A DNA stretch of 64,000 nucleotides from Cyanidioschyzon merolae. Its lineage: Eukaryota. Of this stretch, positions 17,379-41,690 are shown piece after piece. The notes under the pieces are model-generated. The model searched no databases. It saw only the letters and a program-made list of their open reading frames with translations, and had not been told where the DNA came from. The stretch is taken from the NCBI GenBank assembly GCA_000091205.1, contig AP006500.2, one strand, 5' to 3'. The position numbers were made by a program, and so were the translations under genes. Within the stretch, counting starts at the first letter, position 1. Every line of letters begins with the position of its first letter.

Positions 17379-18407
17379 TCACTGGGGCCTGACAGTCGCT
17401 CGTGGCGACTCAACAGCGCATCGGTTCACTGTGGCGGGGCCACCGTCGCTTCGCAGCGCGACCTGCACTTGCCGGTAGGCTTCCCAGAGGGCAATGGCGG
17501 CGCTGGTCGATAGATTGTACGATCTGATACCGGCATCACCGGGACACACCATTGGAATCGCAATCGTCCGCTCCCGAGGAATATCCTCGGGCGGAATGCG
17601 TTCGAAACCATCTAGCTCGTTCCCAAATATTAGCGTGATCTTCGTTGCAAGAACCTCACTTCCTTTCTTTGATGAGACAAGGTCCGCGTCCAGCAACGAG
17701 CTCTGTGCGAACTTGGTGAAGTAAAAAACGTTACCCAACTGGGGCAAACCCTCGTCGCGAAAGGCCTGCCAACTCGACCATACACGCAGATCAACGAAAG
17801 GCCAATAGTCAAGGCCAGCCCGTTTCAGGTGGCGATCACTCAGAGAAAAACCCAGCGGTTCAATGATATGAAGCCGTGCTTGAAAACCTACTGTAGTTCT
17901 GGCGGTATTCCCGGTATTCCAGTGAATAGAGGGTGCGTAGAAAACAACGTTCAGTAGGGGCTCGCCTGTGCCCGTGTGACGCAGTGGCGCGCTCACAACG
18001 CCTGGGCCATAGCTCGCGCGTACGCACTTGCTTCTCGAGATGCACTGTCGAGATGCTCTACTGACGCCTGCGAAACAGGGCAGTTCTGGTGACCACTCGG
18101 TAACAAAAACGAACTCGAGTGCGCGCATAAGCGCCTGGCGTCGGTACCAGGTTCCTGTGTCCATACAGAGCGCGCAATATGAGGAATACTGGGGTGTTCG
18201 CCCTGCGGCGAGTGCATTTCTTTGTGGTTCTTTGAGAGCACGTTTCCTCGAACAGGGAATCGTCATCATTGCTGACTTGATACCAGCAATGGGAGAGCGT
18301 GCATGTATCCACGCCTTTCCTCCAACTTCTGAGACCCATATTCCCCGTCGCAGGTAGTGGTCATTTCGTGCGTTCCGCAGTGCGCCGAGTCTGCCATGAG
18401 CGTCCAC
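17379..18407 (-). CDS. SPOUT-class RNA 2'-O-methyltransferase of the bacterial TrmL (YibK) type, with a ~130 aa N-terminal extension
   Basis: TrmL-like block LNVVFYAPSIHWNTGNTARTT...RLHIIEPLGFSLSDRHLKRAGLDYWPFVDLRVW, then the C-terminal SPOUT knot motifs LIFGNELDGF and IAIPMV..IRSYNLSTSAAIALWE. The true start is probably an internal ATG (e.g. MDTGTW.. near 18164). The extension may be an organellar targeting peptide. Confidence 0.8.
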   Translation of the reverse strand: MDAHGRLGALRNARNDHYLRRGIWVSEVGGKAWIHARSPIAGIKSAMMTIPCSRKRALKEPQRNALAAGRTPQYSSYCALCMDTGTWYRRQALMRALEFVFVTEWSPELPCFAGVSRASRQCISRSKCVRASYGPGVVSAPLRHTGTGEPLLNVVFYAPSIHWNTGNTARTTVGFQARLHIIEPLGFSLSDRHLKRAGLDYWPFVDLRVWSSWQAFRDEGLPQLGNVFYFTKFAQSSLLDADLVSSKKGSEVLATKITLIFGNELDGFERIPPEDIPRERTIAIPMVCPGDAGIRSYNLSTSAAIALWEAYRQVQVALRSDGGPATVNRCAVESPRATVRPQ

Positions 18408-27920: not shown

Positions 27921-30423
27921 TTAGAGAAGATGTCTCCAACTGACGTGCAGACACCTCCCCGCCTTTTTGGACCGGCCACCCACTACTGCTTCCAACTTTT
28001 TCTCATCTAGTTCGACTTTGATAGGTTGTCCAATAAAGTTCTCTCTTGTCAGCTCTGGAGGTCTCGTCTCCAGGACCGCACATCTCCGTACATTGATAGC
28101 GGCATTAAAGTCTCGGTTCACAAACTCCATACGTTTCTTCCCGTTGCGAGTTGTACTCACTATTGCGAGTAGCCCTCGAACTTTCGCCCTCCTTTCCATT
28201 TGCTCCTCCGTCAGCGGTCCGTACTTTGCTATTTCCTCAGGGCTCCTCTGGCACTTTTCTATCTCCACGCTCTGAAGTGTACAACCCAGTTCGTGGTATA
28301 TATACGATGTTCGGAACTCATCTACAGGTATCGTAACAAAACGCCTTGCGCACTGTTTGTGCACCCTCGTCGTTGGAGCTGGAGTAGTGCCTTTCTTGGG
28401 CGCCCAGCGCCCTGCCCCATACGCTACTACGAGCCTTTGACTTTCATCCTCCTTCAAGGCGCTCAACTGATTGAAAAAGTTGGCAAACGCCCGCTGCTTC
28501 CCACCGTATAGATTCATTCGCAAACGAGCCCACCGGGGCTTCGTATACTCCTCCCACAGCGCATCCCAATGCGCCATGCGAACTTCCATGAATTTCCGAA
28601 AAGCTTCAAATTTCGCGCTTCGGCTAGTCACCTTGCTCAAAGCTTCCAGGTGATCCTTCATCCCTGAATTCCAAGTCTCGATTTTCTTCCTTGCATTCAT
28701 GATTCCCGATTCTCGATAGTATCTCGCTCTCGAGAACGTCAAGAGACGCATGTCTTTCTGACGTAAGTTGCCGTCAGTACAATCTTCCGCCCGCTTCGGT
28801 GCTGCGATGGTGATGATATTTGAGTTTCCGGTGTCCGCGCCAACGACAAAGTCGTTATCTTGCACTTTCTGCTTCTCAGAACCGGGCTTCTTGTTTTCTT
28901 CATGGTTCGTCGCGTCAACGACAAAGTCGTTATCCTGCACCTCCTGCACCAGAGGATCCGCTTCCTTCCCATCTTCATCCTTCGTCACGTCAACGACAAG
29001 GTCGTTATCCTCCACCTCCTGCATCGCAGGTTCTGCCTCCTTCTCATCTTCATCGTTCGTCACGTCAACGACAAAGTCGTTCTCTTGCACCTCCTGTGTC
29101 GCAGGATCCGCCTCCTTCTCATATTCATCCTTCGCCACGTCAACGACAAACTCGTTATCCTCCACCTCCTGCATCACAGGATCCTCCTCTTTGTTTTCTC
29201 CATCCTTCGCGACGAGCGCAGCCGAGGGCGGAACTGGCCGACCTTCCTTCAACCGCCGATAGTGTACACACAAGGGTACTCCATCGGTTTCGATCAACCC
29301 AGTAAATACCTTTTTTTGCTGACTTTTAGACGTTTGAAATCGAAGATACTCTTCCAGTACGTCTCCCGGTGTTCGCCGGAGAACTCCTCCCTGCTAACAT
29401 CGAACTCCGGACAGATCTCCCTCATGATGCCGTAAAGGACGCCGGAGTCGATAGTTACAAAATGTGACTTGACTTTCCACATTGGAACCACGTTGAAGCG
29501 CTTCCCCATTAGGAAATTCTTCCGTCTCTCCCACTGTTCATTTGTCTCTTCACTCAGCTTCACCTCCGCTTTGCGTGCGAGCTCTCGGTCCAAAAACACG
29601 AAATAGCGCAGGATGAGGCGGTAGTATCTTTCCTTATCTTTTTTCAACGGTGATATCTTGTCTGTTGGATTCACCAACCCAGTGCCGCACGGTGCTCTTG
29701 TATAGCCGCACGGATCACAGAAGCTTCATTCGTGCTCCTGCGTGATGTCTTCATATCGACAAATTCGATCTCATCTTCATACTTTCGATCGTTCGTGATG
29801 CCGTTGATCATCGCCCATATTCCTTTGCGAGAGATGCCCGGGTAGAGTGCAAACACGGCGCGTTTCATGAAACGTTCGAGGTTCTCTGTCAAATGCTTCT
29901 TCAGGTTCGTAATGTACTTCATTACCCCGTATGTGTAAATATTTCCGTCACCCTTGTATCGGGTACGCTCGAAGCGGTATTCGGCGTAGTTTTCGTGGAG
30001 AGCGTGCACTAGCACATTTTCCTTCCGCGCTTCCCCTGTACCAAGCATCAGGTGACGAATAAAGGTCTTGTGGAAAAACTCGTCTGGAATCTCGACCGTT
30101 TCCATGTGCGTCACGTCGCGATACATCTCCCTCGCCAAATGCATCAGCCCTGAAGACGCCTTGACAATACTCTTGGAGTGCGAGTCGACACGTTTTTCGA
30201 TAGCGTCTCGCAACTTTTCCCTGTAGGGATCCTTGATATGTCCAAGAAGGAAGGCTTTCACCACCATCTCGTCGTACAGTCGTCTTTCTTGCCGCCTTCG
30301 ACGTAGGGCGTCCACCTTTCGATTCTCCTTCACTTCCTTTTCTTCTGGACTCGGCACTGTATTTGTTTTTTTTCTGGCAGCCGGCGACACTGGGCCTCCA
30401 GGATCGTGGACTTGCTTTTTCAT
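27921..30423 (-). pseudogene. TnpB/Fanzor-like RNA-guided RuvC endonuclease homolog (OrfB_IS605 family). The frame of about 835 codons is split into three ORF-track segments (30423-29671, 29677-29294, 29297-27921) by two +1 frame changes.
   Basis: Middle segment: RuvC-I-like ..[16 protein letters not shown].. (Asp codon ~29436-29438). 3' segment: TnpB-type ..RRFVTIPVDEFRTSYIYHELGC.. (the 'VDP.YTSQ.C' block) and RuvC-III ..EFVNRDFNAAINVRR.. (Asp codon ~28110-28112). The CxxC zinc ribbon is mostly missing, and the canonical RuvC-II Glu position reads ..RLVVAYGAGRW.. (substituted). The middle and 3' segments begin with TTG in the ORF track, and their frames stay open upstream and overlap. One junction coincides with the A7/T7 run at 29311-29317. 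Confidence 0.7.
28847..29192 (-). repeat. five tandem 75-bp repeats encoding an acidic 25-aa unit (consensus ~QEVxDNDFVVDVTxDEDxKEADPxx) inside the Fanzor-like frame
   Basis: The period is visible directly in the DNA (gtcaacgacaaagtcgttatcctgcacctcctgc... recurring every 75 nt) and in the translation (PVMQEVEDNEFVVDVAKDEYEKEADPATQEVQENDFVVDVTNDEDEKEAEPAMQEVEDNDLVVDVTKDEDGKEADPLVQEVQDNDFVVDATN...). It sits between the RuvC-I and RuvC-II regions. Confidence 0.85.
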
Positions 30424-34900: not shown

Positions 34901-35357
34901 GATCGGAGAACGCTGGCCTAAGTAAACGTTTTGTCCATGAAAACAATCGTAGCTTCAGCAACGGTGAAACCGGGGCTCGGCGTTCCGCGGGGCATGCTCC
35001 ACTGACTTGTCGAATATGCACGAAAATTGTCGAATTCATTGCTGATGACGCTGCTACTGTGTTGCAGTAGTACGCAGTGGACCTGTCTTCTGCGAGTCTC
35101 GAGAACATTTTGCACTCGAACGGAAACCTGTACGTTCGGACGCTTAGACCATTCGCGTCAGAGGATGCTTTTCAAAATGCATTCTTATCGGGAAAACTCG
35201 AACGTCTCCGCGCAATACCCAGCCATATTACCGGCACTAGCGTGGCCGATTGGCCCCCTTCGACGCCGCTGGCTACAGAGCACTAGTAACCGAGACGCTC
35301 TGGGCATCTCGCAAGCATCGCGTTGCCAATCGCATGGATAAGCTCTGGAATGCCAGC

Positions 35358-35507
35358 GGATACAATCGATCATTCGCTATTTGCTCCGTGTCAACGATGA
35401 GACACACCCAGCAATCGTATGCACCGAGTTTCGGATACAATCGATCATTCGCTATTTGCTCCGTGTCAACGATGAGACACACCCAGCAATCGTATGCACC
35501 GAGGTTC
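35358..35507. repeat. near-perfect tandem duplication, two copies of 75 bp
   Basis: Unit ggatacaatcgatcattcgctatttgctccgtgtcaacgatgagacacacccagcaatcgtatgcaccgag occurs at 35358 and again at 35433 with a single-base difference at the unit end. The small ORFs on both strands that translate as GYNRSFAICSVSTMRHTQQSYAP x2 are probably spurious. Confidence 0.9.
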
Positions 35508-35693: not shown

Positions 35694-38600
35694 ATGGGAC
35701 AACACTACTGTGGAGCTTTTCGTCCTCAGTTGTGGATACTTGATGACGACTTGTCTTCGGAGACACGAACATCTGAGAACTTTACCCCCAGCGAGCGAAC
35801 CTATGGCACAGAGCAGAGCACGTGGTCTGTGTCGACTCGAAGCGGTGCGTCTGATGGAACGCAGGCTTCCCCGATGGACACCTCGCAAGCTGCAGCAGAC
35901 GACGATGAGGACGCACTGGAGTTTGAACAACAAAACATAGAAGAGCGACTGGAGGGTTTTGAGGCCTTTGCTGACCAGTACTGGCGGATCGTGGTGTACA
36001 TCCTGCTCAACCTGTTGACGTGCGGTCTTGTCTACGCCGCGTTGCAGAGTTTCCCCAGCACCAAAGTGCGTCTGCTCTACAGACGTGCAACGAATCTGGC
36101 TGAAGCTACTATGTTGCTCGTGACGTTTCGAAGGAAAAGTCGCCAGAATAAGGGCCATTACTTTGTGATCCCGTCCGAGCCGCGTGCTCGTGTGCCGAGC
36201 AGCGTCCTCAGCGCGTACCTGGGTCGACTCTCTACGCGCACGATTTTGGGACAAAGTGCGCGTGGTCGAGAAACGTTGCGGCTTTTGAGCGAACCCGTTG
36301 AAACGGTGCTTGTGATCGAGGCTCGCCAGCGTCGGTATCTCCTCATCCAGTTATCAGGGTGGCGACACGCCGGTCAACGCGGCATGCACCAGCGTTTTAT
36401 CTGCTTGCGCATCCACAGTGCGTTTATTCCGGCATTTGAGGAGTACTATCGATTACCCACAGACGAGAGCTCTTTGATAACACCCAGCATGCATCCTATT
36501 CCTGAGCATGAAGTCGCACTACCGGTTGCCGGCTTCCACGAAGAGGACGAAGCAGCTTGGGATCGACCGAGCGATCCCCGTGGAAACCAAGAGTCTGCCG
36601 TGGCGGACGTCGAGGATCCCGCTGCCCCCGAGGCTGAAGTACAACCGGCGTCGCTGGTGCTTCACCGACCGCTGGGCATCGACCTGCTAGAGGCAGATGT
36701 CATCCGGGCGATCGTAGGCGACAACAGTATCGAGGTAGAGATGGCACCCTTACTCAGGCTGTTCCTGCAGTCTGTCACACATCCATTCTTCCTCTTCCAA
36801 TTCTTTTCGATTGCGTTGTGGATTCTCGAAGCGTACTACTACTATTCAGCGACAATTGCATTCGCCTCGTTTATGAGCGCCCTCCTGGAAGCCATGGAGA
36901 TGCGAAGCAATGCGGAGCGACTTGCTCGTATCGCCGCCAGCGAAGGAGATGTGCTAGTGATCCGTCGGTCGCCTACGAATCGCTCTTGTGACTGTTGCGA
37001 GCGCATTTCTTCCCGGGAGCTTGTTCCAGGAGATGTGATCATCGTCGAGAGTGGCATGGTTATGCCGTGCGATTGTACGCTGCTGCAAGGCTCAGCGGTC
37101 GTCACGGAAGCGAATCTCACGGGCGAAGCGGCGCCGCTTTTCAAGTCCTCCTGGCACAGTGCATACGAGGAGCCCAGCTCCAGGGTACCCCCGCGAATTC
37201 CCATCGAGTCTTACCAGCACAGTTCGGGACTTGCAGCGGTATCCGAGGTGACCACGCAGGAAGCTTCTGCACACCAGGGCGCCGAGTCTTCTGCCCATTT
37301 CATCAACATGGAAGAAAGCGAAGGCAACGAAGAGGATGAACAGTCATCTGGCGAAAGTGAGGGCTATTTTATGGGCGCCTATTCGGCATCGAATGAAGCG
37401 GAGGATCTGCTTCCTACACCGGCATTTCACCACATGTCGGTAGGTGGCCTCAGCGCCTGGCTGCAACCCGCATCGGCCGCAGAAGCGTCCGCCGTCGGGA
37501 GCGCGCTGGACGCTTCCGTGGAACACTCGTACACCACCGCCGCCGCCACCACTGCTGCTGCTACTGCTCCTGCTGCTGCTGGCGCTGATGCAGACGTAAA
37601 TGTGCGGCAGGTATCTCGAGACGGAGAACGCTATAGACGCGAGCGCGGTGCCCGGAGCGTACCAAGGATGATGACTGCAGGGCGCCAGCACCAGGCGCCG
37701 GCTGCGCATCATTTAGCCTGGGATCAGGTCAATCATGTGCTATACGCTGGAACGAGAGTCATCGAGGCTCGTCCCGAACGGAGCGTGCCGAGCACCCAGC
37801 AGAGCACGGCGGCAGCAACGGATGCTGGGTTTTCCTCAGCGGGAACTTGGCAGGGTACTGGGATCACTGGTGCCGACAACGGAGCCTCCGCTACGCCCGC
37901 AACAGATGATCAGATGCAGTCGCTGGACAGCGCCGTCCTTGCACTTGTCATTCGAACGCGACTCGATACCGCCAAGGGGACGCTCCTGCATCAGATTTTG
38001 CTCGCAGATGACCAGACCTCGAGCTACGAACGCGGAAATCCGGGGCCGCGTGACACTCGCGACACCAAACTCTCGGTGTGGGCGGCGCTTTGGAGGCGCT
38101 TGCGCTCCAGGTCACCGCCTGGCGACGCCCACTTGGGCGATGGCGAACTCGATGACCCCGAGAGCAGTGACAAGCGACTCTCGCAAATGTATCTGGACGC
38201 GTACAAGGCCATGGTTGTGCTGCTGTTCGGTGGCGTCCTCGCTACGGTCTATTCTTTCACCCTGTTGCGTCCGCTGCTCTCGTTTCGAGAAGCCCTACTC
38301 AGCGCACTCGATGTGTTGACGATTGTGGTACCACCGGCACTGCCAGCGGCGGTTACCTTTGGGATTGTGTTCGCACTGGAGAGGCTGCTTGCGGCCCAGA
38401 TATACTGCATTCGTCCGCCGGCGGTTCTTATTGCATCTGGGATCGAAGCGCTCTGCTTCGACAAGACGGGAACCTTGACGGACCTGGGCCTGGACATTCA
38501 CGAAATCCTCCCGGTAGCGTCGATGCCGCTCGCACTGGAAACATTGCCCGGGATTCAGGTCTCGAGCGACCCGCCTGGCGGCATAACCACGGCTGCAACA

Positions 38601-41600
38601 GAGGGCACCATTGCCCTCTTCGATACGGAGCACGTCATCCGACGTCACGACTTGACAGAGGAGGGAGCAGCACCGGAGCACCAGCCGGCGCCCAGCGGGT
38701 ATGCAGCGCGGCTACCAGCGGGCCTAGCCCTGGTCATGAGTTGCTGTCATACGCTTACAGTGGTGCACGGCCAGGTGCTGGGCGACGAGGTGGATTCGCG
38801 TCTCTTCGAGCTCACCGGATGTGAACTGAGGCCAACTGCGAGCCCCGCTGATAGCCGTCGTTGGCAGGGCATTCATCCAGCTCAGACACTGTTTTATGTC
38901 GCTGAACGTCACGCGGAGAGCTCTTTTGGGCGAGTCGTGAAGATCTTCGCTTTTAGCAGTGAGTATGCGCGCATGGGTGTCATTGTGCAGCGACTGGTGA
39001 CTCCGGAGAGCGAGCAACCACCGCAGGTGGAGTGGTTATTTTTAGTCAAGGGTGCCCCCGAGGTGGTGGTGAACTTTTGCGATCGACGCTCCGTACCGAG
39101 CGATTTCAGTCACCAGGTGCAGCTGTACACATCACAGGGCCTGCGGGTACTTGCACTTGCCGGGCGACGTCTGCTGACAACGGACGCGCGTGCACGTCGA
39201 GTTCGCCTGGATGCCGCTGCGCAGGCACTCACGAAGCGCAACCGCAGCCTTGGTACACGAGAAGGAGCACCAACAGCACCAGCAGCAGAGCCACCGGGGC
39301 GTGCGCAAACAGCCCGCAATGCCACGCCCCTGACCTGGAGCAGGCAACGCTTAGAGCGCTCACTCACCCTGTACGGATTGGCGGTGCTTGAGAATCGCCT
39401 CAAACCCGATACAGCAGCGGCCTTGCATGAGCTGCGGCATCGCGCCGACCTCCACTGCCTCATGGTGACTGGTGATCATATTCGCACAGCAGTGAGTGTC
39501 GCTCGCCAGTCGGGCATGATGGACCGCGACGCCCGAGTCATTATCGCTGACGAGCTGAACGCTCAGCTCGTTCAGCGGAGGCGTCAATGCACACGCTTGT
39601 CCTCGTTCGCTTCCGCGAATGCACAATCAGCAGTACCGGGAAATGCTGGTGGCGGTAACGTTGTGGTGCCGGTGGACACCACCACGAGTCAGGTAGTCTT
39701 CTCCGACAGCATGCATGTGCAGAAACGCTTCAGCCGGATGGAGGTGTTCAGCTTGTTGGCTGCATCACCCTGCTCTGCGCGTCTGAATCGCCTCCTGAAC
39801 CGGAGTAGTGCACTGGGGGTGCGGATCATGGAGCGTGCTCCGCTCGTTGCCTGGGAAGCAGAACAGCCTGCTGGCTTTCCAGGAGCGGTGCCCGAAGATG
39901 CACCGATGACGAGTTTCCAGGGCACGACGCATTCTACGGAAGCTACCACAGAGGCAGGTGTATTTCGCTCACGCACGCGCTCGTTACGGAGCGAAGCAAT
40001 GCTGCGCGATACCAGAAGCGCTCAACCCGGATACGGACGGCGAACTGCGGGTAGTACAGCGGCAGCCGCTGAGCAGAGCGATGAAGGGCTCGTCGGTGCC
40101 ACGGGTGTCTCTGCGGGAACAAGCGGCGCTGAGGTCACGACCTTGGCGCGTGGTCGCCTTTCAGAAGCGAAGACACATCCAGCGTTGTTGCTCAGAGAGG
40201 CGGAGGCGGCAGAAGCGGCACCTTTGGAACAGCACGCTGCGGTCGCTGATGAAGCCGCTGTGCCGCCACTCCCGAATCGACGTCATTCTCTTTGGACTGG
40301 AGAACGTGCTGGCACCAGCGCTCTATCCTCGGTTGCGACGGCAAGGGTGGCGTTGCCCCAGGATGAGCCCGTTGCCTTGGCGATGACCGGAGCTGCGTTT
40401 CGTCTCCTGCTTCGAGAGTTTCATCGTTTGTCGGGGAGTCTCGCACGCAGTCGCACGCCAGGTGCTAGCAGTGGTGTTGGTGTTGGTGGTGTTGGTGGTA
40501 GTTGTGGTGGATCTCGAACGTCATCACGTCGCTACCATTTCCTACGACAGGTGTTTTTGCGTTGTACAGTGTACGCGCGTATGTCGGCAGCCGACAAAAC
40601 CGCCCTCGTGCATTTGCTACGAAGCCGTTTCGGCCTCTGTGTCGGTATGTGTGGAGACGGTGCGAACGATGCGGGCGCGCTGCGGGAAGCTGACGTTGGT
40701 GTCGGTCTCGTGGAACGACGCGTTTGGAGTACCAGCGAGTCGCAGGCCTCTGGCGAGGCACCCCTAGAGCGCATCCGGATCGAGAAACCTGATGCTCTGG
40801 CGCGGGAGTATGGCGACTCGCGCGCTCCAAAAGCCACCGGTACGAAGCGGGACTTGCTGCTGCTGCAGCGTCTCCGACCAAAGTCCAGCTCTTCGGCGGT
40901 TGCGGGTGACGACGAGGACGCAGTGGCATCGCTTGCAGCGCATTTTACCAGTCAGGTGACGAGTATTCGGGCGGTGGTCAAGGTACTCACCGAAGGCCGC
41001 GGTGCAGCAGCTGCTTCTCTGGCTTGTTTCAAGTACATGGGCATCTACTCGCTAACCCAATCGATCAGCACGCTATTCCTCTATCGCATCGGTACGGTGT
41101 ATTCCGATGGACAGTTTCTTTTCCAGGATCTGGTGCTCATCATGCCGCTGGCGTTGACCATGGGTCGAACCGCCTCCCAGACGCGCCTCAGTCGACATCG
41201 TCCACCGGTGCGACTAGCTAGTGCTCCCGTCTGCTGGTCGATGGTGCTCCAGAGTCTGGTGCAGGCCAGCTTCCAAGCCGCTGCCGTCTATGCGCTGACA
41301 CAAGCGGATACCGTACCTGGAAGCGTCTTCGGGATGACGTGTCGCTGGAATGCGCCCTGTCCGGCTGCCACGGTGCTCTTTCACGTCGTCAACGCGCAGT
41401 ATATCTGGTCAGCGATCGCGTTCAATATGAAGTCTCCGTTTCGACAGTCATGGGAACAGAATCCGTGGTTCCGCACCACCCTGGCCCTGCTCTCGTTGCT
41501 CTGTTTGAGCGTGATCGAGCCTGTCGTTCCGCTCTTGCAACGGATGCTGGCCTTGGCACCGCTCTCCACGAGCATGCGAAGATGGCTATGGGTCCTTATC

Positions 41601-41690
41601 GCTTTGAACGGTCTGGCGACGCTTCTGGTGGAGGCTGTTCTGAATTGGTACGAACACGGACGTGTAAGGGTGTCTGTCGAAGAGTATTAG
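35694..41690 (+). CDS. P5B-type P-type ATPase (ATP13A2/Ypk9-like cation/polyamine pump), 1998 aa, with very large low-complexity insertions
   Basis: Phosphorylation motif CFDKTGTLT, P5 signature VVPPALPAAV (PPALP fits the P5B subtype), hinge motifs MVTGDHIRTA and GDGANDAGALREADVGVGL, N- and C-terminal transmembrane segments. Start is uncertain: the first ATG in frame is near 35872 (MDTSQAAADDDED). Stop at 41688-41690. Confidence 0.9.
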   Translation: MGQHYCGAFRPQLWILDDDLSSETRTSENFTPSERTYGTEQSTWSVSTRSGASDGTQASPMDTSQAAADDDEDALEFEQQNIEERLEGFEAFADQYWRIVVYILLNLLTCGLVYAALQSFPSTKVRLLYRRATNLAEATMLLVTFRRKSRQNKGHYFVIPSEPRARVPSSVLSAYLGRLSTRTILGQSARGRETLRLLSEPVETVLVIEARQRRYLLIQLSGWRHAGQRGMHQRFICLRIHSAFIPAFEEYYRLPTDESSLITPSMHPIPEHEVALPVAGFHEEDEAAWDRPSDPRGNQESAVADVEDPAAPEAEVQPASLVLHRPLGIDLLEADVIRAIVGDNSIEVEMAPLLRLFLQSVTHPFFLFQFFSIALWILEAYYYYSATIAFASFMSALLEAMEMRSNAERLARIAASEGDVLVIRRSPTNRSCDCCERISSRELVPGDVIIVESGMVMPCDCTLLQGSAVVTEANLTGEAAPLFKSSWHSAYEEPSSRVPPRIPIESYQHSSGLAAVSEVTTQEASAHQGAESSAHFINMEESEGNEEDEQSSGESEGYFMGAYSASNEAEDLLPTPAFHHMSVGGLSAWLQPASAAEASAVGSALDASVEHSYTTAAATTAAATAPAAAGADADVNVRQVSRDGERYRRERGARSVPRMMTAGRQHQAPAAHHLAWDQVNHVLYAGTRVIEARPERSVPSTQQSTAAATDAGFSSAGTWQGTGITGADNGASATPATDDQMQSLDSAVLALVIRTRLDTAKGTLLHQILLADDQTSSYERGNPGPRDTRDTKLSVWAALWRRLRSRSPPGDAHLGDGELDDPESSDKRLSQMYLDAYKAMVVLLFGGVLATVYSFTLLRPLLSFREALLSALDVLTIVVPPALPAAVTFGIVFALERLLAAQIYCIRPPAVLIASGIEALCFDKTGTLTDLGLDIHEILPVASMPLALETLPGIQVSSDPPGGITTAATEGTIALFDTEHVIRRHDLTEEGAAPEHQPAPSGYAARLPAGLALVMSCCHTLTVVHGQVLGDEVDSRLFELTGCELRPTASPADSRRWQGIHPAQTLFYVAERHAESSFGRVVKIFAFSSEYARMGVIVQRLVTPESEQPPQVEWLFLVKGAPEVVVNFCDRRSVPSDFSHQVQLYTSQGLRVLALAGRRLLTTDARARRVRLDAAAQALTKRNRSLGTREGAPTAPAAEPPGRAQTARNATPLTWSRQRLERSLTLYGLAVLENRLKPDTAAALHELRHRADLHCLMVTGDHIRTAVSVARQSGMMDRDARVIIADELNAQLVQRRRQCTRLSSFASANAQSAVPGNAGGGNVVVPVDTTTSQVVFSDSMHVQKRFSRMEVFSLLAASPCSARLNRLLNRSSALGVRIMERAPLVAWEAEQPAGFPGAVPEDAPMTSFQGTTHSTEATTEAGVFRSRTRSLRSEAMLRDTRSAQPGYGRRTAGSTAAAAEQSDEGLVGATGVSAGTSGAEVTTLARGRLSEAKTHPALLLREAEAAEAAPLEQHAAVADEAAVPPLPNRRHSLWTGERAGTSALSSVATARVALPQDEPVALAMTGAAFRLLLREFHRLSGSLARSRTPGASSGVGVGGVGGSCGGSRTSSRRYHFLRQVFLRCTVYARMSAADKTALVHLLRSRFGLCVGMCGDGANDAGALREADVGVGLVERRVWSTSESQASGEAPLERIRIEKPDALAREYGDSRAPKATGTKRDLLLLQRLRPKSSSSAVAGDDEDAVASLAAHFTSQVTSIRAVVKVLTEGRGAAAASLACFKYMGIYSLTQSISTLFLYRIGTVYSDGQFLFQDLVLIMPLALTMGRTASQTRLSRHRPPVRLASAPVCWSMVLQSLVQASFQAAAVYALTQADTVPGSVFGMTCRWNAPCPAATVLFHVVNAQYIWSAIAFNMKSPFRQSWEQNPWFRTTLALLSLLCLSVIEPVVPLLQRMLALAPLSTSMRRWLWVLIALNGLATLLVEAVLNWYEHGRVRVSVEEY

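Follow-up and report, generated by a model that had tools for sequence, protein, structure and literature searches.

In a 64,000-nucleotide stretch of the Cyanidioschyzon merolae genome (contig AP006500.2, assembly GCA_000091205.1; hereafter the window) lies a minus-strand gene, probably at positions 17379..18128, whose product is a member of the TrmL family of SPOUT methyltransferases by sequence and by predicted fold. We consider it probable that this is a nuclear-encoded TrmL-type precursor of 249 amino acids (aa), which is imported into the plastid and there methylates wobble position 34 of plastid tRNA-Leu. Translation would begin at ATG 18128, a 39-residue leader carrying an N-terminal Phe would direct plastid import and then be removed, and the mature protein of ~210 aa would form a knotted SPOUT homodimer with S-adenosylmethionine (SAM) bound in its knot loops, methylating the 2'-OH of wobble C/U34 on plastid-encoded tRNA-Leu(CAA/UAA), as bacterial TrmL does. 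We file the protein among TrmL-like enzymes, as a divergent eukaryotic one which is probably targeted to the plastid, and not as a certified TrmL equivalog.

A preliminary description of this DNA, made from the letters alone, had placed an open reading frame (ORF) at 17379-18407 and had recognised a TrmL-type core within it. The ORF is real at exactly these coordinates, on the minus strand, and runs uninterrupted for 342 codons from a mechanically assigned GTG at 18407 to a TGA at 17379. The profile searches which the description had proposed matched both SpoU_methylase (Pfam PF00588, 1.8e-16, 61 bits against a gathering cutoff of 29.7, aa 152-308 of the mechanical ORF) and TrmL, TIGR00185 being the best of all NCBIfam models (8.8e-33, 113.4 bits). 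A best match of the TRM3/MRM1 type, which it had named as the result contrary to its view, did not appear: the runner-up NCBIfam models, RlmB (E 0.016, 14.7 bits) and TrmH (E 0.031), reach at most 15 bits, and no accessory domain is present. The sequence matches in the PDB are TrmL/YibK proteins in 17 cases out of 17, the best of them from Thermus thermophilus (5co4, 2.8e-26). An AlphaFold2 (AF2) model (predicted local distance difference test score, pLDDT, 84.8; predicted template-modelling score 0.78; core mostly >90 in pLDDT) has a fold which is superposable on solved TrmL. In the Foldseek search of this predicted structure, ranks 1-36 are all TrmL/YibK/CspR, led by 5co4_A (template-modelling score 0.89, root-mean-square deviation 2.1 Å over 165 columns), the best matches lying at E~1e-16, with TrmJ, TrmH, TARBP1 and RlmB appearing from rank 37 on at E~1e-8. 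The architecture is likewise the minimalist one, a SPOUT domain alone with no second Pfam domain, flanked by a disordered leader and tail. Of the motifs first listed, LHIIEPLGF, KRAGLDYW and IPM...RSYNLSTSAAIALWE are present as written; 'PNTGN' is not there, the actual letters being I-H-W-N-T-G-N, the signature of a subfamily which we refer to as the HWNTGN or HW type.

The product opens with the leader (aa 1-39, 18012..18128, minus strand, as are all parts of the gene given here; MRALEFVFVTEWSPELPCFAGVSRASRQCISRSKCVRAS), a putative plastid transit peptide with Phe6 and Phe8. It shares 18-21% amino-acid identity among Cyanidiales orthologues, with a non-synonymous divergence (dN) of ~1.0, and the AF2 model gives it a pLDDT of 50-57 without secondary structure. 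The pre-core segment which follows (aa 40-58, 17955..18011; YGPGVVSAPLRHTGTGEPL) is conserved and specific to the eukaryotic clade of this enzyme; its pattern [YF]-G-x-G...G-E-P-L-L is kept across red algae and Prasinoderma, in the AF2 model it packs on the core (pLDDT ~85-97), and the mature protein probably begins with it. The SPOUT (SpoU/TrmL) catalytic core, recognised by PF00588 and TIGR00185, occupies aa 59-228 (17445..17954) and has a dN of 0.18-0.19 between Cyanidiales species; synonymous divergence is saturated between these species and selection is reported as dN only. The product closes with a non-conserved, variable and disordered C-terminal tail (aa 229-249, 17382..17444; 14-22% identity to orthologues, dN 0.9-2.0, pLDDT 56-62). 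The gene is under purifying selection.

The preliminary description had placed a non-conserved extension of ~130 aa before the core. This was an artefact of the mechanical GTG, as the conserved ATG at 18128-18126 leaves 58 residues ahead of the core, 19 of which are conserved. A gap-free alignment pairs the annotated Met of Cyanidiococcus (L005) with Met94 of the mechanical ORF, which is this ATG, and Cyanidiococcus has no in-frame ATG further upstream, whilst in a third Cyanidiales species (L086) the sole in-frame ATG yields MVRTTLGFLSG...SRCVVATYGLGV. In all three Cyanidiales this Met stands exactly 44 residues ahead of Y-G-x-G-V, and each leader has Phe8 and Cys35. Comparison of four closely related strains shows 0-1 substitutions between 18128 and the stop (750 bp), against 7 substitutions per kb in 18129-18269 (including a non-synonymous R>H at 18241), 15-29 per kb in 18270-18407 and 4-19 per kb in the flanks outside the gene. 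The last of the upstream intervals, 18270-18407, also holds an indel of 153-155 bp (~18290-18309) between strains, which is a ~154-bp tandem duplication in wild strains (copies 73% identical) and a single copy in the window (strain 10D). The duplicated unit contains the ATGATG used as the RefSeq start codon (L001:5788-6095, L002-L004), and in strains with the duplication, which are 99% identical to the window, the upstream copy opens a short ORF only. From the Met position common to three species and the low substitution count in the 750 bp it follows that the coding sequence (CDS) is probably 17379..18128, 249 codons plus the TGA at 17379-17381, encoding the TrmL-type SPOUT methyltransferase precursor. 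The start of RefSeq XP_005538642.1, ATG 18269, falls inside the upstream part of the mechanical ORF (18129..18407, minus strand), and is probably 47 codons too far upstream; this upstream part has no counterpart in orthologues and is probably 5' untranslated region or intergenic.

It is unlikely, although deserving of attention, that a longer product is the real one, starting at ATG 18269 (296 aa) or ATG 18164 (261 aa), with an N-terminal extension of ~105 or ~70 aa and other targeting properties. The upstream ATGs are in frame with no stop between, a transcript beginning upstream would offer a scanning ribosome one of them as its first AUG, the N-terminus from M47 of the mechanical ORF is strongly basic (leader net charge +9), and gene models with such starts are present in public collections. 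However, in the two other Cyanidiales no in-frame ATG precedes the M94 equivalent and the Met-YGxGV spacing is identical, the interval 18129-18269 carries non-synonymous polymorphism where the CDS has almost no substitutions, and the region just upstream is structurally polymorphic. The N-terminal Phe motif also exists only with M94, as from M47 (18269) the first Phe is residue 53. The choice matters, since the shift in start codon changes the predicted targeting signal.

With the start at ATG 18128, plastid import is most likely, judging from the features of the leader. In rhodophytes and glaucophytes a Phe, occasionally another bulky aromatic residue, at the extreme N-terminus marks plastid as against mitochondrial precursors (Knopp et al. 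2020, PMC7038456). The M94-start leader reads MRALEFVFV..., with Phe6 and Phe8, and the leaders of homologues begin MAFVS, MDAFV, MSAFV, MMSVAF, MYYSQAAFV, MVALGFV and MIGFAQP, among others. A Phe stands at positions 2-10 in 15 of the 18 red-algal and glaucophyte-like leaders, where 37% would be expected (binomial P=8e-5, a generous value as the sequences are related, though the leaders are otherwise unalignable). The leader is also not present in bacterial homologues, evolves fast and is predicted to be disordered. Its composition points neither way, a net charge of +3 and 17% S+T standing beside three Glu near the N-terminus; the leaders of Cyanidiococcus and L086 are more typical of transit peptides, with 2-3% acidic residues. 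The earlier suggestion of organelle targeting is thus supported, as far as sequence features can indicate. Many members of the eukaryotic clade come from red algae; the others include Prasinoderma, a brown alga and an entry with a Cyanophora-style identifier. A second TrmL-like gene may be present in Galdieria-like algae, to judge by P0154 (Galdieria phlegrea, 300 aa) and P0009 (L087, GC 44%): one of the pair is a typical red-algal HWNTGN protein, the other is divergent, with I-P-G-N-T-G-N and a ~100-aa leader which begins with Trp8 instead of Phe. Among land plants, At5g26880, labelled 'TrmH group 2', is the putative TrmL-like gene. The tomato chloroplast stroma proteome includes Solyc01g086900, the orthologue of At5g26880 (PMC10493611).

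For the substrate we reason by analogy. Bacterial TrmL forms Cm34 and cmnm5Um34 on tRNA-Leu(CAA/UAA), with ms2i6A37 as a prerequisite in E. coli (PMC4033218, PMC3763551). Since plastid tRNA-Leu(UAA) has been reported with Um34, in soybean and bean (PMC8877259), the likely role of the C. merolae enzyme is 2'-O-methylation of wobble C/U34 of plastid tRNA-Leu. A modification of U34 has also been detected on Arabidopsis chloroplast tRNA-Leu(UAA) (preprint), and the Chlamydomonas nuclear gene Cre10.g417650 has been hypothesised as the source of the chloroplast Cm34/Um34 enzyme (PMC8877259). Our searches found no biochemical data for any member of the eukaryotic clade.

We mapped functional residues by alignment to E. 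coli TrmL (a sequence verified as identical to PDB 4kdz_A), taking tRNA-contact residues solely from the E. coli mutagenesis study (PMC3763551); for the CspR-tRNA-Leu complex (PDB 9j5p) no paper was found, PMC12360207 covering free tRNA only. Motif 1, I-H-W-N-T-G-N (aa 68-74, 17907..17927), supplies the counterpart of E. coli Asn14, which binds S-adenosylhomocysteine (SAH; PMC3763551). K-R-A-G-L-D-Y-W (aa 102-109, 17802..17825) corresponds to the basic tRNA-binding patch R45/R46, where mutants of the E. coli enzyme lose tRNA binding (PMC3763551), and I-F-G-N-E-L-D-G (aa 167-174, 17607..17630) to the SAM-binding loop of E. coli residues 99-106, which contributes to the SAH pocket (PMC3763551). 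The C-terminal knot region IAIPMVCPGDAGIRSYNLSTSAAIALWE (aa 189-216, 17481..17564) includes the I-P-M loop, R-S-Y-N-L-S (E. coli R129-S134) and, at the Tyr142 position, Trp215; loops 120-124 and 130-133 of the E. coli enzyme make up its SAH pocket and active site (PMC3763551, Liu et al. 2013). All of N14, G100, E102, G105, P123, R129, S130, N132 and L133, in the SAH pocket or active site, are kept, as are the tRNA-binding residues R20, R46 and R129; of these, R46, G100, E102 and G105 are invariant. Two positions of the E. coli tRNA surface are altered (K42 to R, R45 to K), M131 is Y, and E. coli K81, next to the SAM-binding loop 78-80, is the K of F-T-K.

Several observations weigh against a plastid TrmL of conventional activity. 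The equivalog cutoff of TIGR00185, 190.6 bits, is missed (113.4), as is that of NF007683 (79.1 against 282), and functional equivalence to TrmL is not certified by a curated model; on TIGR00185 the algal orthologues score 115-123, HW-type bacteria 137-143 and a partial Acaryochloris segment 182, all below the cutoff. No biochemically characterised member of the HW-type subfamily was found. Three tRNA-binding residues of the E. coli enzyme differ (R43 to H, R59 to V and R104 to D), and the dimer-interface Tyr142, which is called strictly conserved and essential for the dimer, Y142A being an inactive monomer (PMC3763551), is here Trp215. On the side of targeting, the leader carries acidic residues early on (E5, E11 and E15), which is atypical for transit peptides; leaders of 8-16 residues without a Phe motif occur in the amoebozoan Planoprotostelium fungivorum (P0088) and in the EukProt entries P0012 and P0178; and a survey of coconut predicted its TrmL homologue COCNU_01G011970 to be mitochondrial (PMC10298058). 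Most of the differences from E. coli TrmL (at the R43, R59, R104, M131 and Tyr142 positions) are common to the whole algal clade, most of which has Asp at R104 and which carries W or F at position 142, and some tRNA-surface positions vary among bacterial TrmLs also. Because the sampled cyanobacteria carry Phe at the Tyr142 position, this position is aromatic rather than invariably Tyr. Because the short-leader members occur in the non-photosynthetic Planoprotostelium and in two EukProt entries, the eukaryotic clade is not strictly plastid-linked; these members could stem from secondary transfer or contamination, or could mean that the enzyme works in the cytosol or mitochondrion.

Some of these observations would fit another destination for this TrmL-type enzyme, the mitochondrion alone or together with the plastid, where its target would be position 34 of mitochondrial tRNA-Leu; we hold this to be improbable. 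The net charge of the leader, +3, would suit it, as would the coconut prediction and the clade members in a non-photosynthetic amoebozoan, and the non-cyanobacterial phylogeny described below takes away the simplest argument for the plastid. To our knowledge there is no mitochondrial TrmL, nor any mitochondrial Cm34/Um34 on tRNA-Leu, and this speaks for the plastid. The Phe motif enriched in red-algal and glaucophyte-like leaders separates plastid from mitochondrial precursors in precisely these algae, the leader shows no predicted amphipathic helix, and dual targeting is predicted for the green lineage only (PMC7038456). Published tables give taurine-type modifications for mitochondria (PMC8877259), and the tomato orthologue of At5g26880 is a protein of the chloroplast stroma, as noted above.

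More doubtful still is that the protein acts on organellar rRNA as a 2'-O-methyltransferase, or is a SpoU enzyme directed at some other RNA, as the public name of XP_005538642.1, 'probable rRNA methyltransferase', suggests. Besides this name, the failed TrmL equivalog cutoff agrees with such a role, and the substituted tRNA-contact residues together with the pre-core segment peculiar to the clade could mean a changed substrate. Against it, models of rRNA-type SpoU enzymes score ~100 bits lower (RlmB 14.7 against TrmL 113), the Pfam scan finds no N-terminal RNA-binding domain of the RlmB type, and structures of TrmJ, TrmH and RlmB enter the fold ranking eight orders of magnitude in E-value behind those of TrmL. 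The substituted positions, moreover, vary in genuine bacterial TrmLs, E. coli R43 being K in Thermus and M in Bacillus.

The preliminary description had left the origin of the TrmL-type enzyme, which it took to be organelle-targeted, as endosymbiotic or horizontal, and had proposed a phylogeny of its ancestry. The phylogeny, now run, points to a bacterial ancestry of the HWNTGN type, favouring the horizontal and not the endosymbiotic half of that statement. We scanned prokaryotes at one genome per species and took the best 80 of at least 600 matches, among which the highest identities were to Myxococcales and Gemmatimonadaceae metagenome-assembled genomes (45-46%), Thermoanaerobaculia (42-43%), and Acaryochloris and Spirulina (41-42%). 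The I-H-W-N-T-G-N motif is found in Gemmatimonadota, Acidobacteriota (Thermoanaerobaculia, Vicinamibacteria), Myxococcota, some Desulfobacterota and Elusimicrobia, whereas cyanobacteria have P-P-N-T-G-N. In a neighbour-joining tree (98 sequences, 155 columns, Kimura distances, 300 bootstraps) monophyly of the 17 eukaryotic sequences has 76% bootstrap support, and a clade of the eukaryotes with most HW-type bacteria, excluding all sampled cyanobacteria, is recovered in 259 of the 300 (86%). Cyanobacteria alone come nearest among the bacteria in 4 of 300 bootstraps, and share that place with the HW type in 5 more (~1-3%); in this tree the eukaryotic clade is neither sister to nor nested within them. 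These figures come from a distance method on a short alignment, with 6 cyanobacterial-type sequences, alphaproteobacteria left out and sampling seeded by the motif. Eukaryotic cores score 32-38 bits higher with size-matched hidden Markov models (HMMs) of the HW type than with a cyanobacterial one, nine signature columns are common to the eukaryotes and the HW type and one to the eukaryotes and cyanobacteria, and a profile of the eukaryotic clade gives 211-322 bits for eukaryotes, followed by Longimicrobiales and Thermoanaerobaculia at ~195 bits.

As the eukaryotic clade groups with HWNTGN-type bacteria and not with cyanobacteria, the sequence data favour an ancient horizontal acquisition over endosymbiotic gene transfer from the plastid ancestor. 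The lineage is probably bacterial but not cyanobacterial, with a horizontal acquisition which probably predates the split of the red, green and glaucophyte lineages. Plastid proteins recruited from non-cyanobacterial bacteria are a well-documented pattern (for example PMC3518814). Quite tentatively, we can picture a single transfer of an HWNTGN TrmL from a Gemmatimonadota-, Acidobacteriota- or Myxococcota-like donor before the Archaeplastida diversified, with the clade-specific features arising since and with core Viridiplantae perhaps carrying another TrmL lineage. Among those features the pre-core segment, the Trp at the dimer Tyr and the Asp at R104 may have altered the oligomer interface or the tRNA specificity.

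The gene itself is an ordinary nuclear gene of C. merolae 10D which was already annotated. The 296-aa product of its longest ATG-initiated ORF is a 100% match to the C. merolae 10D protein BAM82606.1/XP_005538642.1, encoded on a 1.25-Mb contig, and homology search returns red-algal proteins as its nearest homologues. ORF density and GC content by themselves would have suited a trypanosomatid genome, a reading discarded in view of these homologues and of the exact match to C. merolae 10D. GC content is uniform across the window at ~56%, and the neighbouring genes have the same GC. Around the gene lie long, intron-free ORFs of eukaryotic type, the neighbours including a DEAD_2 helicase (1020 aa), a threonine dehydratase, a P-type ATPase (1998 aa, 35694..41690), a DEAD-box helicase and a leucine-rich repeat protein (2339 aa). 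The order of a ~850-aa protein, the TrmL-type gene and the DEAD_2 helicase is found also in 99%-identical environmental strains, and the same three-gene order recurs in the nuclear assembly of Cyanidiococcus yangmingshanensis and on a contig of the third Cyanidiales species. The eukaryotic context which had been claimed for the gene is confirmed by this shared order and by the eukaryote-type neighbours. Bacterial contamination or a recent bacterial insertion, for which it may be said that every homologue found outside the eukaryotic algal clade is bacterial, is ruled out for practical purposes by the identity to the RefSeq protein on a 1.25-Mb contig, by flanking eukaryote-type genes of equal GC, by the synteny with Cyanidiococcus and the third species, and by membership of a eukaryote-specific clade.

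Elsewhere in the 64 kb, neither a tRNA gene (ARAGORN) nor any Rfam family above its gathering threshold was found. A 75-bp tandem repeat at 28841-29209 (4.9 copies, 81% matches) has a unit length which is a multiple of 3, lies inside a long minus-strand ORF (27921..29297) and probably codes for a repetitive protein segment. A local drop in GC to 0.50 coincides with this repeat, and strong negative GC and AT skew marks 28001-30000. At 35357-35507, ~190 bp upstream of the P-type ATPase ORF, there is a near-perfect 75-bp direct duplication, its two copies 98% identical.

The plastid TrmL-type enzyme proposed here is less surprising than the preliminary description implied, as the gene is annotated, the idea is known and orthologues are already TrmL-like by name (Porphyridium). 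Its importance is modest and lies in three things: a corrected start codon, an improved product name and the non-cyanobacterial affinity. As a product name, tRNA (C/U34) 2'-O-methyltransferase of the TrmL family is far likelier than rRNA methyltransferase. The protein is a concrete candidate for the plastid tRNA-Leu Um34/Cm34 enzyme, an activity never tied to a characterised eukaryotic protein, and as C. merolae is genetically tractable the assignment is testable. The phylogenetic affinity adds one case to the plastid proteins drawn from other bacteria.

Placed beside known systems, the C. merolae protein shares with the Viridiplantae TrmL homologues (Cre10.g417650, At5g26880, Solyc01g086900 and COCNU_01G011970, compared by description only) the same proposed role at the wobble position of organellar tRNA-Leu; no biochemical characterisation of these homologues was found in the literature searched. 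No named protein from core Viridiplantae is among the best 120 matches to the profile of the eukaryotic clade, because of which the Viridiplantae homologues may belong to a TrmL lineage other than the red-algal, Prasinoderma and glaucophyte-like clade. Trm3/TARBP1 (tRNA Gm18) and Mrm1/MRM1 (mitochondrial rRNA Gm) have the class IV SPOUT fold and 2'-O-ribose methylation in common with it, but are TrmH/RlmB-type enzymes with extra domains; such models match the C. merolae protein at E~0.02-0.08 only, and the methyltransferase domain of TARBP1 first appears at fold rank 43. By sequence and by modelled structure the protein is not of the TRM3/MRM1 type. The paper that named TrmL (Benitez-Paez 2010) reportedly includes a phylogenetic survey.

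Bacterial TrmL (E. coli 4jak/4kdz, Thermus thermophilus 5co4) is, like the C. merolae protein, a single-domain minimalist SPOUT enzyme, with 35-41% core identity, the common motifs NTGN, FG-x-E-x-x-G and IPM...RS-x-NLS, the same predicted fold and the SAM-pocket residues kept. In contrast, the C. merolae protein is nuclear-encoded, adds the 39-aa leader, the 19-aa pre-core segment and the 21-aa tail, has H-W in place of the P-P which precedes NTGN in E. coli and cyanobacterial TrmL, and carries small insertions at aa ~145-160 and 194-200. Its nearest bacterial relatives are those of the HWNTGN subfamily (for example P0165, Longimicrobiales; P0171, Thermoanaerobaculia; and loci L006-L014, L021, L033, L037, L042, L047, L057, L064 and L080), with 42-48% identity and with I-H-W-N-T-G-N plus eight further signature columns in common. 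These bacterial proteins are ~155-200 aa long, have neither the leader nor the pre-core motif and keep Tyr at position 142, and where they read R-S-L-N-L and F-S-T-K the algal proteins read R-S-[YF]-N-L and F-T-K-[FY].

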